A stretch of 58,451 nucleotides of DNA from Candidatus Woesearchaeota archaeon (GTDB taxonomy: Archaea; Nanobdellota; Nanobdellia; Woesearchaeales; WAPJ01): assembly GCA_047602765.1 (NCBI GenBank), contig JBLKOL010000003.1, positions 1-58,451 on the forward strand. The letters run 5' to 3'. The position numbers were made by a program, and so were the translations under genes. Below, piece by piece: positions 22,792 to 47,701 of the stretch. Numbering within the stretch: the stretch's first letter is position 1; every line of letters starts with the position of its first letter. Below the pieces are notes generated by a model. The model made no database searches. It was not told the origin of the DNA and saw only the letters and a program-made list of their open reading frames with translations.

Positions 22792-22910
22792 AAATAGATC
22801 AACATCAGCTCCGTGTAGAGCGTTCATGATACTCAATAGCGCGAACACCGCACGTGCGGGAACGCGTCGCGAGTAACACTTATATATTGGCGCTCATCAA
22901 TCTCAAATCC

Positions 22911-23174
22911 ATGGATGCCCTAGTGCTCTTCAAAGCACTCAGCGACGAGACACGATACAAGATCCTGAGCATCCTCCTCGAAGAGGACCGCTGTGTCTGC
23001 GAGCTCGTGCCGATGGTCAACAAGAGCCAGCCGACCGTATCGATACACCTCAAAGCGCTCGAATCCAAAGGCATCGTGAGCAAACGACGTGAAGGACGCA
23101 AGATCATCTACTCGCTCGCAGAGCCGAAGATCAGAACGCTCATCGAACACGCCATACAACCGGTGATAGCATGA
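22911..23174 (+). CDS. ArsR/SmtB family transcriptional regulator
   Basis: FKALSDETRYKIL, CVCEL, SQPTVSIHLKAL and G.V..RREGR..IYSL motifs; TATATAT ~25 nt upstream. Confidence 0.93.
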   Translation: MDALVLFKALSDETRYKILSILLEEDRCVCELVPMVNKSQPTVSIHLKALESKGIVSKRREGRKIIYSLAEPKIRTLIEHAIQPVIA

Positions 23175-24502
23175 ACAGAACCCTCCTCGTACTCCTCGCA
23201 CTCATACTCATCGCATCGGTTCCGAGCGTCGAAGCAGACGCGCCTGATGAAATCGTCATGCACTACTTCTGGGGTGAAGGATGCCCGTTCTGCGAGATGC
23301 AAAAACCCTACAACCAACGATTGCTCGACGACCACCCCTACCTGACCATCGAATCGTACGAAGTGTACCGGTCAGCAGAGAACCAGCGGATCTTCCAAGA
23401 GATGGCCGCTGAACACGGCGTACAAGCCAGAGGCGTCCCGATGACCTTTATCGAAGGCTACCACTGGTCCGGATTCACCGAACGGCACTACCGTGAGATG
23501 AACGATACAATCACACGGCTCGCACAGAACCTGACCGTTGAACGACCAGACACCGATTCGATTATCACCCTCCCGTTCATCGGAGACGTCGACCTCGCAG
23601 ACTCATCATTGTTCGTCACCACCATTGCCATCGCATTCATAGACGGATTCAACCCGTGCTCGCTCTGGCTCTTGACATTCCTGCTCGGAATCCTGCTCCT
23701 CACCAAGTCACGACGTAAGATGATCATCATCGGAGGAACGTTCCTCTTCGTCACCGCAACCGCCTACGGAGCGTTCATCGCTGGCCTGTTCAGCGTATTC
23801 CAATACACGGCGATGATCGCACCCATACGCTACATCGTCGGAACCATCGCCCTCATATTCGCAGCCGTAAACATCAAAGACTTCTTCTGGTACAAGAAAG
23901 GCATCTCGTTCACGATCAGCGACGAACACAAACCGGGACTGTTCAAGAAGATGCGCGGCATCATGAGACCCGGACAGAGCACCGGGAGCATGATCGCAGC
24001 AACCGCGTTCCTCGCTCTGGGAGTAACCCTCATCGAGCTTCCGTGCACCGCGGGATTCCCCGTCCTCTGGAGCAGCCTCGTAGCGCTCCAAGAACCCGGA
24101 TTCGTAGGATTCCTCTCACTGCTCGCCGTCTACATCCTCATCTACCTCGGCATCGAGATCGTCATACTCGTATCGGCAATCGTAACGCTCAACAAACTCG
24201 TATTCACCGAACACCACGGACGCGTGCTCAAGCTCTTCGGAGGCATGATTATGCTCTTTTTGGCCATCGGATTCGTGTTCGCCTACGAATTCATGAACAC
24301 GATCAACGGAATGCTCACCCTTATGGGAGGAGCCATACTCGCAAGCCTGCTCGTATACATCGCACACAGGAGCCTTGCGAAACCGGTACTCCCACACGAA
24401 GAGCGTAGAGCGTCCGAACCACAGGCCAAAGACGATGCTACCGAAGCGGACTCATCCGAAACAGACGAAATCGAAGAAGATACGAAGCGGAGGGAAAAGT
24501 GA
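23171..24502 (+). CDS. Exported thioredoxin-like (CPFC) domain fused to a CcdA/DsbD-like membrane domain
   Basis: Signal peptide, FWGEGCPFC, then multi-TM domain with DGFNPCS and ELPCTAG Pro-Cys motifs. Confidence 0.85.
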   Translation: MNRTLLVLLALILIASVPSVEADAPDEIVMHYFWGEGCPFCEMQKPYNQRLLDDHPYLTIESYEVYRSAENQRIFQEMAAEHGVQARGVPMTFIEGYHWSGFTERHYREMNDTITRLAQNLTVERPDTDSIITLPFIGDVDLADSSLFVTTIAIAFIDGFNPCSLWLLTFLLGILLLTKSRRKMIIIGGTFLFVTATAYGAFIAGLFSVFQYTAMIAPIRYIVGTIALIFAAVNIKDFFWYKKGISFTISDEHKPGLFKKMRGIMRPGQSTGSMIAATAFLALGVTLIELPCTAGFPVLWSSLVALQEPGFVGFLSLLAVYILIYLGIEIVILVSAIVTLNKLVFTEHHGRVLKLFGGMIMLFLAIGFVFAYEFMNTINGMLTLMGGAILASLLVYIAHRSLAKPVLPHEERRASEPQAKDDATEADSSETDEIEEDTKRREK

Positions 24503-24864
24503 TGGACTACCCAGATGGATTGCGCTACGATGAGAAGTACTCGTGGGTGCGCAAAGAAGGAGACGCATACGAAGTCGGCATCACCAAGGCAAGCGCAGAG
24601 GAAGGAGACGAATTCGTCTTCATACAACTCCCCGAGGTAGGGAAGAAACTCTCCAAAGGAGGCACGTACGTGTCCGTTGAGAGCTCGAAATCGAGCGGAC
24701 ACATACCCTCGCCGCTGAGTGGAACCGTCGTCGAAGTCAACGAAGCCCTCTTCGATGACCCATCACTCATCAACCACGATCCGTACGGATCGTGGATCAT
24801 GCGCATCGAAGCCGAAGCCTCAGACTACGAATCCCTGCTCAGAGCAGACGAACGCCGCGGATGA
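24499..24864 (+). CDS. gcvH: Glycine cleavage H-like lipoyl carrier protein (orphan)
   Basis: YSWVR..VGIT, VESSKSS with the lipoyl-Lys, SPLSGTVVEVNEAL..P.LIN.DPYG.W motifs. Confidence 0.9.
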   Translation: MMDYPDGLRYDEKYSWVRKEGDAYEVGITKASAEEGDEFVFIQLPEVGKKLSKGGTYVSVESSKSSGHIPSPLSGTVVEVNEALFDDPSLINHDPYGSWIMRIEAEASDYESLLRADERRG

Positions 24865-26156
24865 GGGTCGTCATCATCGGAGGAGGAAGCGCAGGAACAA
24901 GCGCAGCGTTCGAATTGCGCAAACGCTCGAAAGATATCGAGATCACCATCCTTGAGAAGAGCCCGTACCCCGAATACTCGCCCTGCGCGCTTCCGTACGT
25001 CCTCTCAGGCGAGATAGGATCGTTCGATGACATCTTCATCTTCTCACCCGAAGACTACGAACGAGAGGGCATCACGCTCGTCAACAAGGCGAACGTCGAA
25101 GGGATCGACAGAGCCGAGAAGCACGTGAACGCCGTAGTCGACGCAGCCGCTGAAGACTACCCGTACGATGCGCTCATCATCGCCACGGGAAGCGAACCAC
25201 ACATCCCCTTCCCCATACGCGGACCGTACCATACACTCAGATCCCTCGATGATGCGAAAACGCTCGACCGCGTACTCGAATCAGGACGACGACTCGCCGT
25301 CGTAGGAGCAGGACTCATCGGACTCGAAGCTGCACACGCCGGAATCGAGAGAGGCATGGACGTATCCGTATACGAAGCGCACGAGCGCATCCTCGCAGGA
25401 CTCTTCGATGCGGATATGGAACGCAGGATCACAAGCGCACTCGGAATCGACATCGCGACCGGTGTGAGAGTCTTAGAGGCAGACGGCCAACTCACGCTCG
25501 AAGATAAGAACGTACCGTACGATGTGCTCCTCATCGCCACAGGACTCACACCCGATACCAGGCTCGCACGAGACGCAGGACTCGACGTGGAACACGGAAT
25601 CATCGTAGACTTAGAGCACCGAACCTCGGATCCTTCGATCTACGCCGTCGGAGACTGCTGCGAGATCGAACACCTCTTCGGAGCGCGCAGAACCGACATG
25701 CTCGGAACCCTCGCCTTCCAAGCAGCACCACTCATCGCAGGCAGCATCCTCAACGAACCCGCAGACGCACGACCCACGCTTGGAGCCGCCATCTCACGGA
25801 TCGGACCACACACGTTCGCATCGAGCGGACTCACGCTCGAAGGCGCACGAGCCCTCGGAATCGAAGCCGTCGGAGCACTCATACGAGGAACCACGCGTTC
25901 AGAGTACTATCCGGGCGAGTACCCGATGAGCGTCAAACTCGTCGCACGAGACGATGGCGTGATCATCGGAGGACAGATCCTCGGACGAGAAGACGTCGCC
26001 GGACGCATCAACCTCATCAGCCTCGCCATCAGCCACGAACACACCGCAGCAGAGCTCGCACGACTCGAAACCGTATACAACCCGGCGAGCGCACCCATCC
26101 ACGAACCGATCAGCATCGCAGCACAGATGCTCACCAAGAAGCTGAAGAAACCATGA
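24861..26156 (+). CDS. CoA-disulfide reductase / NADH oxidase family flavoprotein
   Basis: GGGSAG FAD motif, single redox Cys in YSPCALPY, GAGLIGLE..E NADH site, IYAVGDC and C-terminal YNPASAP dimerisation motif. Confidence 0.88.
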   Translation: MRVVIIGGGSAGTSAAFELRKRSKDIEITILEKSPYPEYSPCALPYVLSGEIGSFDDIFIFSPEDYEREGITLVNKANVEGIDRAEKHVNAVVDAAAEDYPYDALIIATGSEPHIPFPIRGPYHTLRSLDDAKTLDRVLESGRRLAVVGAGLIGLEAAHAGIERGMDVSVYEAHERILAGLFDADMERRITSALGIDIATGVRVLEADGQLTLEDKNVPYDVLLIATGLTPDTRLARDAGLDVEHGIIVDLEHRTSDPSIYAVGDCCEIEHLFGARRTDMLGTLAFQAAPLIAGSILNEPADARPTLGAAISRIGPHTFASSGLTLEGARALGIEAVGALIRGTTRSEYYPGEYPMSVKLVARDDGVIIGGQILGREDVAGRINLISLAISHEHTAAELARLETVYNPASAPIHEPISIAAQMLTKKLKKP

Positions 26157-26911
26157 GAGGACGACTCATACACGGACCCGAAGACCTACGCGGACCCATG
26201 CACATGGCCATCGACGACGTACTCGCACGAAGAGTCGGACGAGGATCAGAACCCGTCCTGAGATGGTATGCGTGGAGCGAGCCAGAGATCGCCATCGGAT
26301 ACTTCCAATCCATACGCGACGAAGTAGACCTCAACGCATGCGAACAAGACGACATACGCGTATTCAGACGCATGAGCGGCGGCGGAGCCGTCTACAAAGA
26401 CCCGCACGGAGAGATCAACTACACGATCCTCATCCCCGAACGAGCAGAACTCGCGAGCATCCTCGAATCATACCAGGTGATCTGCACACCGATCATCACG
26501 GCGCTCAAAAGCCTCGGTATAGATGCCGAATTCGCCGGAATCAACGACATCACCGTCGCAGGCAAGAAGATCTCAGGAAACGCACAGACGCGCATCCACG
26601 GAGCCATACTCCAACACGGAACGATCCTCGTAGACTTCAACCCTCAGCTCATGGCACGCTACCTGCGTTTCTCGAAAGCCAAACTCTCAGACAAACAGGT
26701 CGAAGGAATGGCAGAACGCGTCACCACACTCACAACACTCATACCAGGGATCAGCGCAGAACAGGTCATGGACGAGATCAGCACGTCGTTCTCAGACTAC
26801 CTGGGGATCGCATTCGAAGAGAGCACGATCAGCGAAGAAGAATACGCAGCAGCTGAGACGCTCGCAGCTCAGCAGTACGATACCGAAGCGTGGAACAGGT
26901 GGCGCTCATGA
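26153..26911 (+). CDS. lplA: Lipoate-protein ligase A catalytic subunit
   Basis: MAIDDVL, RRMSGGGAVY, GKKISGNAQ and QHGTIL motifs. Confidence 0.92.
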   Translation: MRGRLIHGPEDLRGPMHMAIDDVLARRVGRGSEPVLRWYAWSEPEIAIGYFQSIRDEVDLNACEQDDIRVFRRMSGGGAVYKDPHGEINYTILIPERAELASILESYQVICTPIITALKSLGIDAEFAGINDITVAGKKISGNAQTRIHGAILQHGTILVDFNPQLMARYLRFSKAKLSDKQVEGMAERVTTLTTLIPGISAEQVMDEISTSFSDYLGIAFEESTISEEEYAAAETLAAQQYDTEAWNRWRS

Positions 26912-27165
26912 TCGAAAAAGAACACAAGGTACCCGGAGGGAAGCTCGTACGGATACGCGCAACGATCGAAGAAGGGACGATCAGTACGATCGAGATCCAC
27001 GGAGACTTCTTCTTACACCCCGAAGCTACGATCGCCGCGATCGAAGAGGCGCTCATCGGAGTTAGGGTTGACGAGGTTGCGGACACCGTCAGAGACACGC
27101 TCGAAACACACAACGCGCAGCTCATCGGATGCAGCCCTCAAGACATCCAAAGAACACTCGAATGA
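26908..27165 (+). CDS. Lipoate-protein ligase C-terminal accessory subunit (LplB-type, split ligase)
   Basis: KVPGGKLVR..I.GDFFLHPE..I..IEEAL.G motif; ATGA overlap with lplA. Confidence 0.88.
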   Translation: MIEKEHKVPGGKLVRIRATIEEGTISTIEIHGDFFLHPEATIAAIEEALIGVRVDEVADTVRDTLETHNAQLIGCSPQDIQRTLE

Positions 27166-27725
27166 AAGCCGCACTCATACTCATAGGACTCCTCGTGCTC
27201 ACAGGATGCTCGAGCGAACCCGAACACTACACGATCGCAGCATGCCGAACGATGGCAGCACTCATCGGACCCGTATCGAGCGATACGATCACGATCGAAA
27301 CTGTGGAATCGAGCGCACACGCCTTCACCGACGTACGCGAAGGACGCGCGCACGCAGCGCTCACCGGCAGACCACCCATAGAAGGAGAATCGTTCGGATA
27401 CCGAACGAGAACCGTACGCAAAGGATCAACCCTCCTCGCTGAGGATTCACGCGTGGAACTTGTAGAAGACCTGAGCGAACTCGACGTAGCCATCTGCATC
27501 GACGACTACCCTGAAGGAGTCATAAGACCCCTCCCCTGCGAGTCATACCCCGACGAGACGACCCATCGGATCGTAGACTGGGAGTCATGGAAGGGAGAGC
27601 CCTTCGTCAGAGTCATCGATGGAGAACACCACAGCCTGCTCTTCAGAGGAGTATACCTCACCGGATTCGAAGGCCTCGACGAACTCGAAGCATTCATCAC
27701 CACACGCTTGGAGGAACACACATGA
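27162..27725 (+). CDS. Lipoprotein with periplasmic-binding-protein-like fold
   Basis: Lipobox LTGC, IAACRT and AF..V.EG.A.AALTGR pattern; ATGA overlap. Confidence 0.65.
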   Translation: MKAALILIGLLVLTGCSSEPEHYTIAACRTMAALIGPVSSDTITIETVESSAHAFTDVREGRAHAALTGRPPIEGESFGYRTRTVRKGSTLLAEDSRVELVEDLSELDVAICIDDYPEGVIRPLPCESYPDETTHRIVDWESWKGEPFVRVIDGEHHSLLFRGVYLTGFEGLDELEAFITTRLEEHT

Positions 27726-28527: not shown

Positions 28528-28652
28528 GCCGAGGTCGCATAACCTGGTATTGCGGCGGTCTCGAAATCTCAAACTCCGTTTGAGGAGCTCGAACGGAGAG
28601 TTCGAGCAAACCGCTCCCTTTGGGATTGGGGGTTCGAATCCCTCCCTCGGCG
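28528..28652 (+). tRNA. tRNA-Ser(CGA) with a 43-nt intron at 37/38 (28566-28608)
   Basis: GCCGAGG/CCTCGGC acceptor, G73, long variable arm, GCGGT/ACCGC stem restored after splicing, CTCG/CGAG central helix with CA|A bulge. Confidence 0.92.
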
Positions 28653-47586: not shown

Positions 47587-47701
47587 GCCGGCGTAGCTCA
47601 GTTCGGTTAGAGCGCCAGACTCATAAGAATGAGTGAAGAGCCGAAAGGCGATGACCATCTCGGAAATCTGGAGGTCGCGGGTTCAGATCCCGTCGCCGGC
47701 A
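47587..47701 (+). tRNA. Elongator tRNA-Met(CAT) with a 40-nt intron at 37/38 (47626-47665)
   Basis: GCCGGCG/CGCCGGC acceptor, CCAGA/TCTGG stem restored after splicing, AA|A 3' bulge; ATACGC-TTAAAAC promoter upstream. Confidence 0.9.

Follow-up and report, generated by a model that had tools for sequence, protein, structure and literature searches.

The stretch of DNA analyzed here (the window, 58,451 nucleotides in all) is contig JBLKOL010000003.1, positions 1 to 58,451, from a Candidatus Woesearchaeota archaeon (GCA_047602765.1). Between positions 22911 and 27725 on its forward strand lie seven open reading frames, which encode an ArsR-type repressor, a membrane protein with an exported thiol domain (here called TrxMem), a GcvH protein, a flavoprotein, the lipoate-protein ligase subunits LplA and LplB, and a surface lipoprotein. 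All six junctions are 4-nt start/stop overlaps, with ATGA at 23171, 24861, 26153, 26908, and 27162 and GTGA at 24499. An alternative GcvH start, the ATG at 24502, retains the overlap with the TrxMem stop codon. No terminator-like site was found on the forward strand within the seven-gene unit, and the organization of the genes as one translationally coupled unit is supported. A TATA-box-like TTATATA was read from the sequence at 22881..22887 on the forward strand, about 24 nt 5' of the ArsR ATG (22911), a position that suggests a leaderless archaeal transcript. The genes, overlaps, and motifs reported by a first-pass annotation of this DNA were all confirmed.

TrxMem (23171..24502, forward strand, 443 amino acids) combines an exported Grx/Trx-fold domain with a two-Cys membrane domain. 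A signal peptide (residues 1 to 23) is followed by the Grx/Trx-fold domain (about residues 27 to 122), for which Trx-fold matches were found, and then by about seven transmembrane helices and a charged C-terminal tail. The active-site residues C38 and C41 (C38-P-F-C41, in GCPFC; codons 23282..23293) are invariant in 22 homologues. The same is true of two Pro-Cys motifs in the membrane domain (residues 140 to 405; 23588..24385), FNPC163 (Cys codon 23657-23659) and LPC292 (24044-24046), so that TrxMem carries the paired Pro-Cys motifs characteristic of DsbD/CcdA proteins. In the AF2 model (pLDDT 77), the helices break at 160-161 and 294, at the Pro-Cys sites.

The label "CcdA," given to this membrane domain in the first-pass annotation, could not be upheld as a family assignment. 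The window TrxMem did not match PF02683 (DsbD_TM), PF13386 (DsbD_2), or the NCBIfam CcdA/DsbD models even at E<=10, and DsbD_2 was weakly touched by only 2 of the 22 homologues (best E, 0.007). Alignment with archaeal CcdA by hhalign gave a probability of 5.9% and an E of 0.0064, collinear over 193 columns and with both Pro-Cys motifs aligned. Foldseek returned nothing significant, the best TM score in its list being that of CcdA 5vkv (0.35/0.39, below 0.5). Three TrxMem paralogs (G056:C112, G018:C2, and G051:C5), on the other hand, matched both TrxMem (E, 5e-28 to 6e-17) and PF02683 above its cut-off. Judged from these comparisons, kinship of the membrane domain with DsbD/CcdA is remote and transitive via paralogs.

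The GcvH protein (24499..24864, forward strand, 121 amino acids) was assigned by GCV_H (PF01597, 1.8e-33) and NF002270 (120 bits; cut-off, 117). Its lipoyl-Lys64 (codon 24688-24690), in VESSK within the motif ESSKSSGH, is invariant. The GcvH proteins encoded next to TrxMem group together (92/91), apart from those linked to the glycine cleavage system (GCS) and with the signature E[AS]VKWSGH around the lipoyl lysine. The ligase is of the bipartite type, with an LplA-B_cat domain and a separate C-terminal-domain subunit: LplA (26153..26911; PF21948, 7e-52) is the catalytic subunit, scoring 188 bits with LplA_large, under the 480-bit exception cut-off, and LplB (26908..27165; NF053749, 74.5 bits; cut-off, 65) is the accessory subunit, both on the forward strand.

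The flavoprotein (24861..26156, forward strand, 431 amino acids; Pyr_redox_2, 1.6e-52) has a dimerization domain and a single active-site cysteine, Cys42 (YSPCALPY; codon 24984-24986), which is invariant in cassette homologues, including those of CPR bacteria. It thus falls into the CoADR/NADH oxidase/NADH peroxidase class of FAD/NAD(P)H enzymes, at scores below the CoADR equivalog cut-offs (models TIGR03385 and NF007123; 245.7 versus 578.8 bits and 231.3 versus 458). The best PDB relatives were NADH oxidases and CoA(-persulfide) reductases. Homologues of this protein reduce O2, CoA disulfide, or persulfides, with no known case of lipoyl reduction, which counts against a lipoyl-based redox relay.

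The two outer genes encode a regulator and a candidate target. ArsR (22911..23174, forward strand; HTH_5, 7.4e-17; NF033788, 91.5 bits; cut-off, 55) shows the HTH_5 fold and, in helix 3, the Cys-X-Cys sensing motif (CVC, in DRCVCEL) of ArsR/SmtB metalloregulators. The lipoprotein (27162..27725, forward strand, 187 amino acids; lipobox LTGC, Cys16) belongs to an unnamed family; a family search gave no match, and three close homologues were found. Cys28 (codon 27243-27245) is invariant, the one non-lipobox cysteine of which this holds, and homologous proteins sit after LplB or before TrxMem in DPANN and CPR cassettes.

The first-pass annotation had proposed a neighborhood survey across DPANN and CPR, and this survey bore out the link between TrxMem and GcvH. 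A phylum sample of 401 genomes contained 53 GcvH-like genes, of which 34, in 32 genomes, come directly after a TrxMem gene on the same strand, at gaps of 15 to 179 nt. Adjacency to TrxMem is seen for 29 of 32 cassette-type GcvH genes versus 1 of 15 of the canonical type. All 37 genomes with a TrxMem of the close subfamily (at least 220 bits) have GcvH, versus 14 of the remaining 364. TrxMem also directly adjoins GcvH in seven further families within the order of the source organism. The same arrangement, with the order TrxMem, GcvH, a free Grx-like lipoprotein, flavoprotein, LipA, LplA, and LplB, occurs in CPR bacteria and in "Bacilli" MAGs. By these comparisons, the combination of TrxMem, GcvH, flavoprotein, and LplA/B is strongly conserved, in many DPANN families as well as in CPR bacteria. 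Counting against a relay, GcvH is not a neighbor of TrxMem at 74 of the best 80 loci with bacterial homologues.

For the source genome, which is 69% complete, the results were mixed. The first-pass annotation had noted that GcvP, GcvT, Lpd, and 2-oxoacid dehydrogenase genes were missing from the operon; this holds for the operon only, since E1a, E1b, E2, and a canonical Lpd (CLNHGC) are encoded on contig C34 (95043-100121) of the same genome. Outside the operon, the genome also encodes a true TrxR and a CcdA of canonical type, whereas GcvT, GcvP, and LipA were not found in the 69% recovered. The suggestion that this GcvH is not the GCS component therefore stood, and GcvT was likewise found in none of the 8 cassette genomes searched for it. 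The suggestion that lipoylated GcvH replaces thioredoxin did not stand: with PDH, Lpd, TrxR, and CcdA in the genome, GcvH is neither the sole lipoyl protein nor a stand-in for a missing thioredoxin system. It follows, counting against a relay, that thioredoxin could feed TrxMem and that LplA/B and GcvH could serve PDH as well. The canonical Lpd could also recycle lipoyl-GcvH.

Such a genome would also be compatible with ordinary lipoate salvage, in which GcvH lipoylated by LplA/B relays the lipoyl group to the E2 of PDH, as in Bacillus and Staphylococcus, the Nox-type enzyme recycles NAD+ for PDH, and TrxMem and the lipoprotein are unrelated neighbors. The GcvH of Firmicutes acts as a lipoyl relay according to the literature; the source genome encodes both Lpd and a PDH complex, no LipA was found in it, and its second LplA-like gene, near PDH, is weak and divergent. 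However, E2 is absent from 30 of the 32 cassette genomes, and of the 75 genomes with E2 in the 401-genome sample, most have no GcvH match, so that E2 lipoylation in the phylum does not require GcvH. A LipL-type amidotransferase was not detected (LplA scored 22 bits with the LipL model, whose cut-off is 400), and salvage leaves the adjacency of TrxMem and GcvH unexplained. We regard it as highly improbable. Since the cassette genomes almost always lack the GCS and E2, the cassette GcvH is probably neither a glycine-cleavage nor a lipoyl-relay component, and in those without E2 and GcvT lipoate appears to serve it alone.

A dedicated lipoyl protein might also act within the cytoplasm, as an antioxidant or thiol-repair module in which electrons pass from NAD(P)H through the flavoprotein to lipoyl-GcvH and on to peroxides, sulfenic acids, or AhpD-type proteins. 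TrxMem would then be one client of several, or a co-regulated parallel system, and not the dedicated acceptor. Such a module would be similar to the Lpd-DlaT-AhpD-AhpC relay of Mycobacterium tuberculosis or to GcvH-L of Staphylococcus aureus. The relative G004 fits this reading and counts against a relay in that it has Lpd, GcvH, LipA, LplA, and LplB but TrxMem nowhere in the genome; that its Lpd, a canonical one, takes the place of the flavoprotein counts in favor of a relay. AhpD-like CxxC genes occur within some cassettes (L104 and L136), Nox-class enzymes are typical of oxidative stress, and GcvH-L of Staphylococcus aureus is protective against oxidative stress (PMC12440151). Against this, the order of TrxMem followed by GcvH is essentially fixed across the 32 genomes, at the gaps of 15 to 179 nt given above, and the close TrxMem subfamily was never seen without GcvH in the sample (37/37), which would be unexpected for a mere co-regulated neighbor. 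We therefore consider a purely cytoplasmic role unlikely.

If TrxMem is the partner of GcvH, electrons might also flow inward. In a quinone-free counterpart of DsbA/DsbB, exported proteins would be oxidized by the CPFC site, electrons would pass through the membrane Cys pair to oxidized lipoyl-GcvH, and the Nox-type flavoprotein would reoxidize dihydrolipoyl-GcvH with O2 or NAD+. Quinones are generally missing from CPR and DPANN organisms. Oxidizing DsbL/DsbA-type proteins have active sites similar to the exported CPFC/CPHC motif, which counts against reductant export, and the RGVP cis-Pro loop seen in the homologue alignment is also DsbL/DsbA-like. Among solved structures, O2-reducing NADH oxidases come closest to the flavoprotein, and the physiological reaction of Lpd is the oxidation of dihydrolipoyl groups. 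However, transfer from a DsbA-like couple to the lipoyl group (potential, about -290 mV) would be strongly uphill, and CPHC also occurs in low-potential archaeal Grx-like thioredoxins. Distant TrxMem paralogs (L124 and L125) have genes for a cytoplasmic glutaredoxin and a TrxR-like protein on their flanks, a parallel triad in which a carrier, an NAD(P)H flavoprotein, and a membrane protein are again combined, and this pairing with reductive donors argues for reductant export. The same direction is indicated by the AhpD-like partners and by the remote kinship with DsbD/CcdA. The genomic context thus favors reductive flow, and oxidative flow seems distinctly unlikely.

The CVC motif of ArsR raises a further possibility, the handling of arsenic or soft metals. 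Dihydrolipoyl-GcvH, with its vicinal dithiol, would act as a chaperone or decoy that binds As(III) or some other thiophilic metal(loid), and the Cys-lined TrxMem with its exported CxxC domain would pass the bound species on or sequester it, under an As(III)-type ArsR. The affinity of arsenite for dihydrolipoyl groups is classical knowledge, and ArsM, ArsC, and ArsP genes adjoin related cassettes and TrxMem paralogs (L103, L106, L125, and L152). However, the regulator at the head of many cassettes is of another kind (a membrane-tethered wHTH in 8 loci, two-component systems in CPR), genes for ars efflux or methylation are missing from the window operon, and a dedicated NAD(P)H flavoprotein suits redox cycling more than metal binding. 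Such a role is very improbable.

Our preferred reading, to which we give an even chance on comparative genomics, is that the operon specifies a redox module that is built on a lipoyl protein, complete in itself, and connected to a membrane thiol-disulfide transporter. Direct observations are the gene structure, the family assignments, the phyletic pattern, and the fact that the TrxMem-GcvH gene pair is both tightly and widely conserved; from them we infer the electron-transfer steps, the flavoprotein substrate, the role of the lipoprotein as a target, and induction under stress from arsenic, thiols, or sulfide. LplA and LplB, whose enzyme families are clear, would load scavenged lipoate onto Lys64 of the dedicated GcvH paralog. 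The single-Cys42 Nox/CoADR-class flavoprotein would keep lipoyl-GcvH reduced with NAD(P)H, a step to which Lpd could add. From the cytoplasm, dihydrolipoyl-GcvH would then reduce C163 and C292 in the DsbD/CcdA-like domain, and this pair would reduce the fused exported CPFC Grx-like domain, which would pass electrons to extracytoplasmic thiol targets. Candidates for such targets are the surface protein that is conserved with the cassette and has one invariant Cys, and the free lipid-anchored copy of the Grx-like domain found in relatives. ArsR, through its CVC site, would turn the unit on under thiol-reactive stress, for example from arsenite. The interpretation put forward in the first-pass annotation is thus, as far as gene content and context can tell, partly supported.

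Many ultra-small archaea and bacteria without other use for lipoate have this pairing of a lipoyl carrier with a membrane thiol protein, and its recurrence points to an undescribed membrane thiol redox transfer. A literature search found no published account of such a TrxMem-GcvH lipoyl system. The association of TrxMem, GcvH, flavoprotein, and lipoate ligase points to an undescribed route by which thiol redox power may cross the membrane.

DsbD, CcdA, and ScsB relay electrons from cytoplasmic thioredoxin through two membrane cysteines to an exported Trx-fold protein. Like them, TrxMem has two invariant Pro-Cys motifs, in the first helix of each half, and an exported Trx-fold CxxC domain; its distant paralogs reach the Pfam DsbD_TM cut-off, and some adjoin TrxR and glutaredoxin. 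Unlike them, the window TrxMem has no Pfam or NCBIfam match and weak profile and structure similarity, an extra seventh helix, a highly conserved cytoplasmic loop (NIKDYFWYKKGxSFTISDKHKP), and genetic coupling to lipoyl-GcvH and a Nox-class flavoprotein instead of thioredoxin. Bryk and colleagues are said to have described in 2002 a peroxidase relay of Mycobacterium tuberculosis that runs through Lpd, DlaT (SucB), AhpD, and AhpC. There, as proposed here, a protein-bound dihydrolipoyl group recycled by an NADH-flavoprotein reduces a CxxC protein, and AhpD-like genes occur in some cassettes. However, that relay uses a dehydrogenase-complex E2 as carrier and a canonical Lpd as reductase, and all of its parts are cytoplasmic, whereas the window operon has a stand-alone GcvH, a single-Cys Nox/CoADR-class flavoprotein, and a linked membrane protein with an exported domain. 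The stress-linked GcvH-L/LplA2/SirTM/macrodomain operon of Staphylococcus and Streptococcus (PMC4518038, PMC12440151) likewise pairs a second, non-GCS GcvH with its own lipoate ligase. None of the seven operon products is a sirtuin-type ADP-ribosyltransferase or a macrodomain protein, and the S. aureus operon, unlike that in the window, has neither a membrane thiol protein nor a Nox-class flavoprotein. The LbpA lipoate-binding proteins of the sHdr sulfur-oxidation system (PMC6067878) are also GcvH-like lipoyl carriers outside glycine cleavage that are encoded with dedicated lipoylation enzymes. No sHdr gene was found among the operon products or conserved cassette neighbors, and no Tus or Dsr gene in the operon. 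The sHdr-LbpA system serves sulfane sulfur oxidation, whereas the operon described here presumably serves a thiol-disulfide relay, and the partners of the two carriers differ.

The operon at 22911-27725 (+) consists of seven ORFs encoding, in order, ArsR, TrxMem, GcvH, a Nox/CoADR-class flavoprotein, LplA, LplB, and a lipoprotein. Every start shares four bases with the preceding stop (ATGA at 23171, 24861, 26153, 26908, and 27162; GTGA at 24499), and with overlaps present at all six junctions, the coupling of the seven genes described in the first-pass annotation was borne out. An alternative start of GcvH, ATG 24502, keeps the stop overlap. A scan of the unit found no terminator-like site on the + strand. 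Because a TATA-like TTATATA lies approximately 24 nt 5' of ATG 22911, a leaderless transcript of the archaeal type is suggested; a scan 5' of ArsR found no inverted repeat for an operator, and a sigma-70 promoter scan found none, as expected for an archaeal host. Profile searches identified an ArsR/SmtB repressor (motif DRCVCEL), GcvH (GCV_H, 1.8e-33) with Lys64 within VESSK, a flavoprotein of the Nox/CoADR class (Pyr_redox_2, 1.6e-52; 245.7 bits to the CoADR equivalog model, below its cut-off of 578.8), LplA as the catalytic subunit, and LplB above its family cut-off. TrxMem (443 aa) and the 187-aa lipoprotein encoded at 27162-27725 matched no Pfam or NCBIfam family in these searches, and a homologue search with the lipoprotein returned only three close relatives, all without a name. 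Two long Rfam tRNA matches in the window, one of 125 nt just 3' of the operon (28528-28652, +) and one of 115 nt (47587-47701, +), are absent from the ARAGORN output and most likely represent archaeal tRNA genes with introns.

TrxMem (23171-24502, +) starts with a signal peptide, followed by an exported domain with C38-P-F-C41 and approximately seven transmembrane helices. The exported domain is predicted to adopt a Trx/Grx fold, because pLDDT exceeded 90 in the AF2 model and Foldseek matched it to thioredoxins. F33, W34, C38, C41, C163 (DGFNPCS), and C292 (ELPCTAGFP) were invariant in 22 diverse homologues, as was the cytoplasmic loop NIKDYFWYKKGxSFTISDKHKP, and the helix breaks of the AF2 model fell exactly on both Pro-Cys motifs. 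The window protein had no Pfam match even at E<=10, and a weak DsbD_2 match was obtained for only 2 of the 22 membrane domains. Alignment of the membrane domain with archaeal CcdA by hhalign gave a probability of 5.9%, collinear over 193 columns with both Cys in register. With Foldseek, the membrane-only model gave nothing significant (best TM-score, 0.35/0.39 to CcdA 5vkv) and the whole model gave matches confined to the thioredoxin domain; the membrane-domain profile found nothing among PDB sequences. Related genomes encode distant paralogs that score against TrxMem at 1e-16 to 1e-28 and also pass the curated threshold of PF02683 (DsbD_TM). Membership in CcdA/DsbD has weak direct evidence, and its best support is transitive, via these paralogs. 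Since the direct matches are weak while the paralogs link TrxMem to PF02683, we tentatively regard the membrane portion as an unclassified, deeply branching lineage within the DsbD/CcdA superfamily and not as CcdA. The relation to the CcdA domain proposed at first is remote and transitive, with no direct Pfam or NCBIfam match of the window protein. The family is large, with more than 1149 proteins and more than 577 genome loci as lower bounds, and is spread over Woesearchaeota, CPR, Chloroflexota, Bipolaricaulota, Thermotogae, and several Proteobacteria. In bacteria, TrxMem genes mostly lack an adjoining GcvH (74 of the best 80 loci).

The pairing of TrxMem with GcvH is a real and conserved arrangement. 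Among 61 genomes of the order, the two genes lie directly beside each other in 8, which belong to eight families and include the present genome, usually together with the flavoprotein and LplA/B. Further cassette members occur in relatives: LipA, a wHTH regulator tethered to the membrane, an AhpD-like protein with CxxC, homologues of the window's lipoprotein, and the exported Grx-like domain as a separate protein with a lipid anchor. ArsM, ArsC, and ArsP neighbours also occur in relatives; together with the CVC motif of ArsR, they suggest arsenic or soft-metal handling, which ranks third among the rival readings and which we regard as improbable. For the phylum, 401 genomes were searched with a cassette-GcvH profile and a membrane-domain profile, and the coordinates were then compared. 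Of 53 GcvH-like genes, 34 (in 32 genomes) followed a same-strand TrxMem at a distance of 15 to 179 nt, and the order was always TrxMem then GcvH. Adjacency to TrxMem was found for 29 of 32 cassette-type GcvH and 1 of 15 canonical-type GcvH, and every one of the 37 genomes whose TrxMem was close (>=220 bits) had a GcvH somewhere, versus 14 of the 364 others. The co-occurrence of GcvH and TrxMem, which the first-pass annotation had left to a neighbourhood survey, is conserved across many DPANN families and is also seen in CPR.

The cassette gene order is shared by a 1.3-Mb Moranbacteria contig, another Patescibacteria MAG, and two "Bacilli" MAGs; across domains it reads surface Cys-protein, TrxMem, GcvH (KWSGH), Grx-like lipoprotein, DUF169, flavoprotein (same Cys), LipA, LplA, LplB. 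The DUF169 (PF02596) protein is found in both CPR cassettes, L150 (8846-9604) and L152 (8585-9343), where it separates the Grx-like lipoprotein from the flavoprotein or LplA. Separately, ArsR-led clusters with Thioredoxin_3 (a small redox-active disulfide protein), an ArsP_1 permease, a DsbD_2-type CcdA, a CxxC lipoprotein, and ArsM were observed in L152 (1-3305) and in L125 (G033:C1:1914-8321), a locus with a distant TrxMem paralog. They adjoin TrxMem paralogs or the cassette, and this "thiol/arsenic island" recurs in DPANN and CPR.

In a maximum-likelihood tree, a branch (92/91) separated the 12 TrxMem-adjacent GcvH from the GcvP/T-linked GcvH. The motif that follows the lipoyl Lys is KWSGH in cassette GcvH, KSSGH in the window, and KSVSD in canonical GcvH. 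GcvT was detected in none of the 8 cassette genomes tested versus all 4 genomes with GcvH beside GcvP/T. On these grounds, and with neither GcvP nor GcvT found in its own genome at 69% completeness, a role of this GcvH as the H protein of the glycine cleavage system was rejected. E2 (PF00198) was present in 75 of the 401 sample genomes, yet in 2 of the 32 cassette genomes, one of which is the present one, and the majority of E2-bearing genomes had no GcvH match. Therefore, in the sampled phylum, GcvH is not required to relay lipoyl groups to E2, and it is the sole recognisable lipoyl protein in most cassette genomes. The relay to E2 was rejected as a general explanation and could at most apply to the present genome. 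The same count contradicts, as a general explanation, plain lipoate salvage for PDH, the 2-oxoacid dehydrogenase complex; this fourth-ranked reading appears slightly less probable still than arsenic handling. A short (approximately 100 aa) GcvH-like family was also observed directly 3' of TrxMem-like genes at L109 (G023:C23), L115 (G022:C4), G238:C4, G125:C38, and G410:C113, with Glu at the lipoyl-Lys position in the L115 copy (VESMEGT).

The present genome (0.96 Mb, 69% complete), in which the window forms contig C8, encodes an acidic proteome and tRNAs with introns, and its nearest public relatives are labelled Woesearchaeota. LipA, GcvP/T, and AhpD were not found in this 69% complete genome, which answers the check for gcvP/gcvT raised in the first-pass annotation. 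The absence of Lpd and 2-oxoacid dehydrogenase noted there applies to the operon only. Outside the window, at C34:95043-100121 (-), lies a complete PDH-type operon comprising E1a (TIGR03181, 445 bits), E1b, an E2 that contains a lipoyl domain, and a canonical Lpd (TIGR01350, 514 bits, CLNHGC), here in a DPANN-like genome of roughly 1 Mb. An ORF of 291 aa with weak similarity to LplA (C34:84155-85057) is located 10 kb from the PDH genes. Judged from translations, C34:86132-93306 (+) encodes an apparent cytoplasmic [NiFe]-hydrogenase; its sulfhydrogenase-like subunits have 265, 272, and 424 aa, and maturation genes resembling HypA/HypB come after them. A canonical CcdA and a true TrxR (361 bits, above the cut-off) are also encoded in this genome. 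Given the PDH and Lpd, LplA/B probably lipoylate E2 here as well, and Lpd could also act on lipoyl-GcvH. TrxR is likewise present in 60 of 61 relatives, and the idea that GcvH takes over from an absent thioredoxin system was dropped. At C18:29753-30646, a flavoprotein resembling TrxR (TIGR01292, 119.6 bits, below the cut-off) was observed; its open frame spans 476 aa and includes approximately 170 additional N-terminal residues, glutaredoxin-like by eye.

In the proposed mechanism, electrons would pass from NAD(P)H to the FAD/Cys42 flavoprotein, then to lipoyl-K64 of GcvH, from there to C292/C163 of TrxMem, and across to the exported C38/C41, which would reduce surface thiols. Two loci with distant TrxMem paralogs, L124 and L125, encode next to them a 77- to 80-aa cytoplasmic glutaredoxin (PF00462, 5e-18, CPFC) and a TrxR-like flavoprotein, which gives a second triad made up of a small carrier, an NAD(P)H flavoprotein, and a membrane protein; the TM3-TM4 cytoplasmic loop of these paralogs is unlike that of the GcvH-linked subfamily. 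AhpD-like proteins are members of some cassettes, and AhpD is reduced by a lipoyl protein in Mycobacterium tuberculosis. In genome G004, the position of the flavoprotein next to GcvH, LipA, and LplAB is taken by a canonical Lpd, suggesting that the flavoprotein cycles the lipoyl group. On these three grounds, export of reducing power is favoured, and the reverse, an oxidative flow in quinone-less cells, ranks second among the rivals and seems unlikely. Slightly ahead of it, though also unlikely, is a mainly cytoplasmic lipoyl antioxidant module. Strict one-to-one dependence between TrxMem and GcvH is weakened, because most bacterial TrxMem lack GcvH, G004 has the GcvH module without TrxMem, and the exported CPFC/CPHC motif looks DsbA/DsbL-like. 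As far as gene content and motifs can tell, lipoyl-GcvH feeding a TrxMem relay is plausible, with about even chances of being right. We hold with rather less confidence the wider reading that a dedicated lipoyl-GcvH, recycled by a single-Cys Nox/CoADR-like flavoprotein, may be the obligate cytoplasmic partner of this unclassified deep DsbD/CcdA branch, that most cassette-bearing DPANN and CPR may keep lipoate ligation, often with LipA, solely for the relay, and that the cassette may have spread between domains as one unit.

If true, lipoyl proteins would gain a third role, as thioredoxin-like electron carriers that supply a membrane relay, besides acyl/aminomethyl carriage and sulfur oxidation. 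This would explain the orphan GcvH, LplA/B, and LipA genes kept by many ultra-small archaea and bacteria without glycine cleavage and 2-oxoacid dehydrogenases. TrxMem would be a new, large membrane-protein family with no Pfam model, probably controlling the cell-surface thiol chemistry of episymbiotic microbes. With four or five proteins, the system is small enough for direct reconstitution. A full-text literature search returned no paper that connects GcvH or lipoyl proteins with proteins of the CcdA/DsbD type, and the cassette, best classed as a DsbD/CcdA-type relay with a lipoyl-protein partner, is apparently undescribed. Its closest published systems are the DsbD/CcdA relays and the mycobacterial Lpd-DlaT-AhpD-AhpC relay, together with GcvH-L/SirTM (PMC12440151, PMC4518038) and LbpA/sHdr (PMC6067878).
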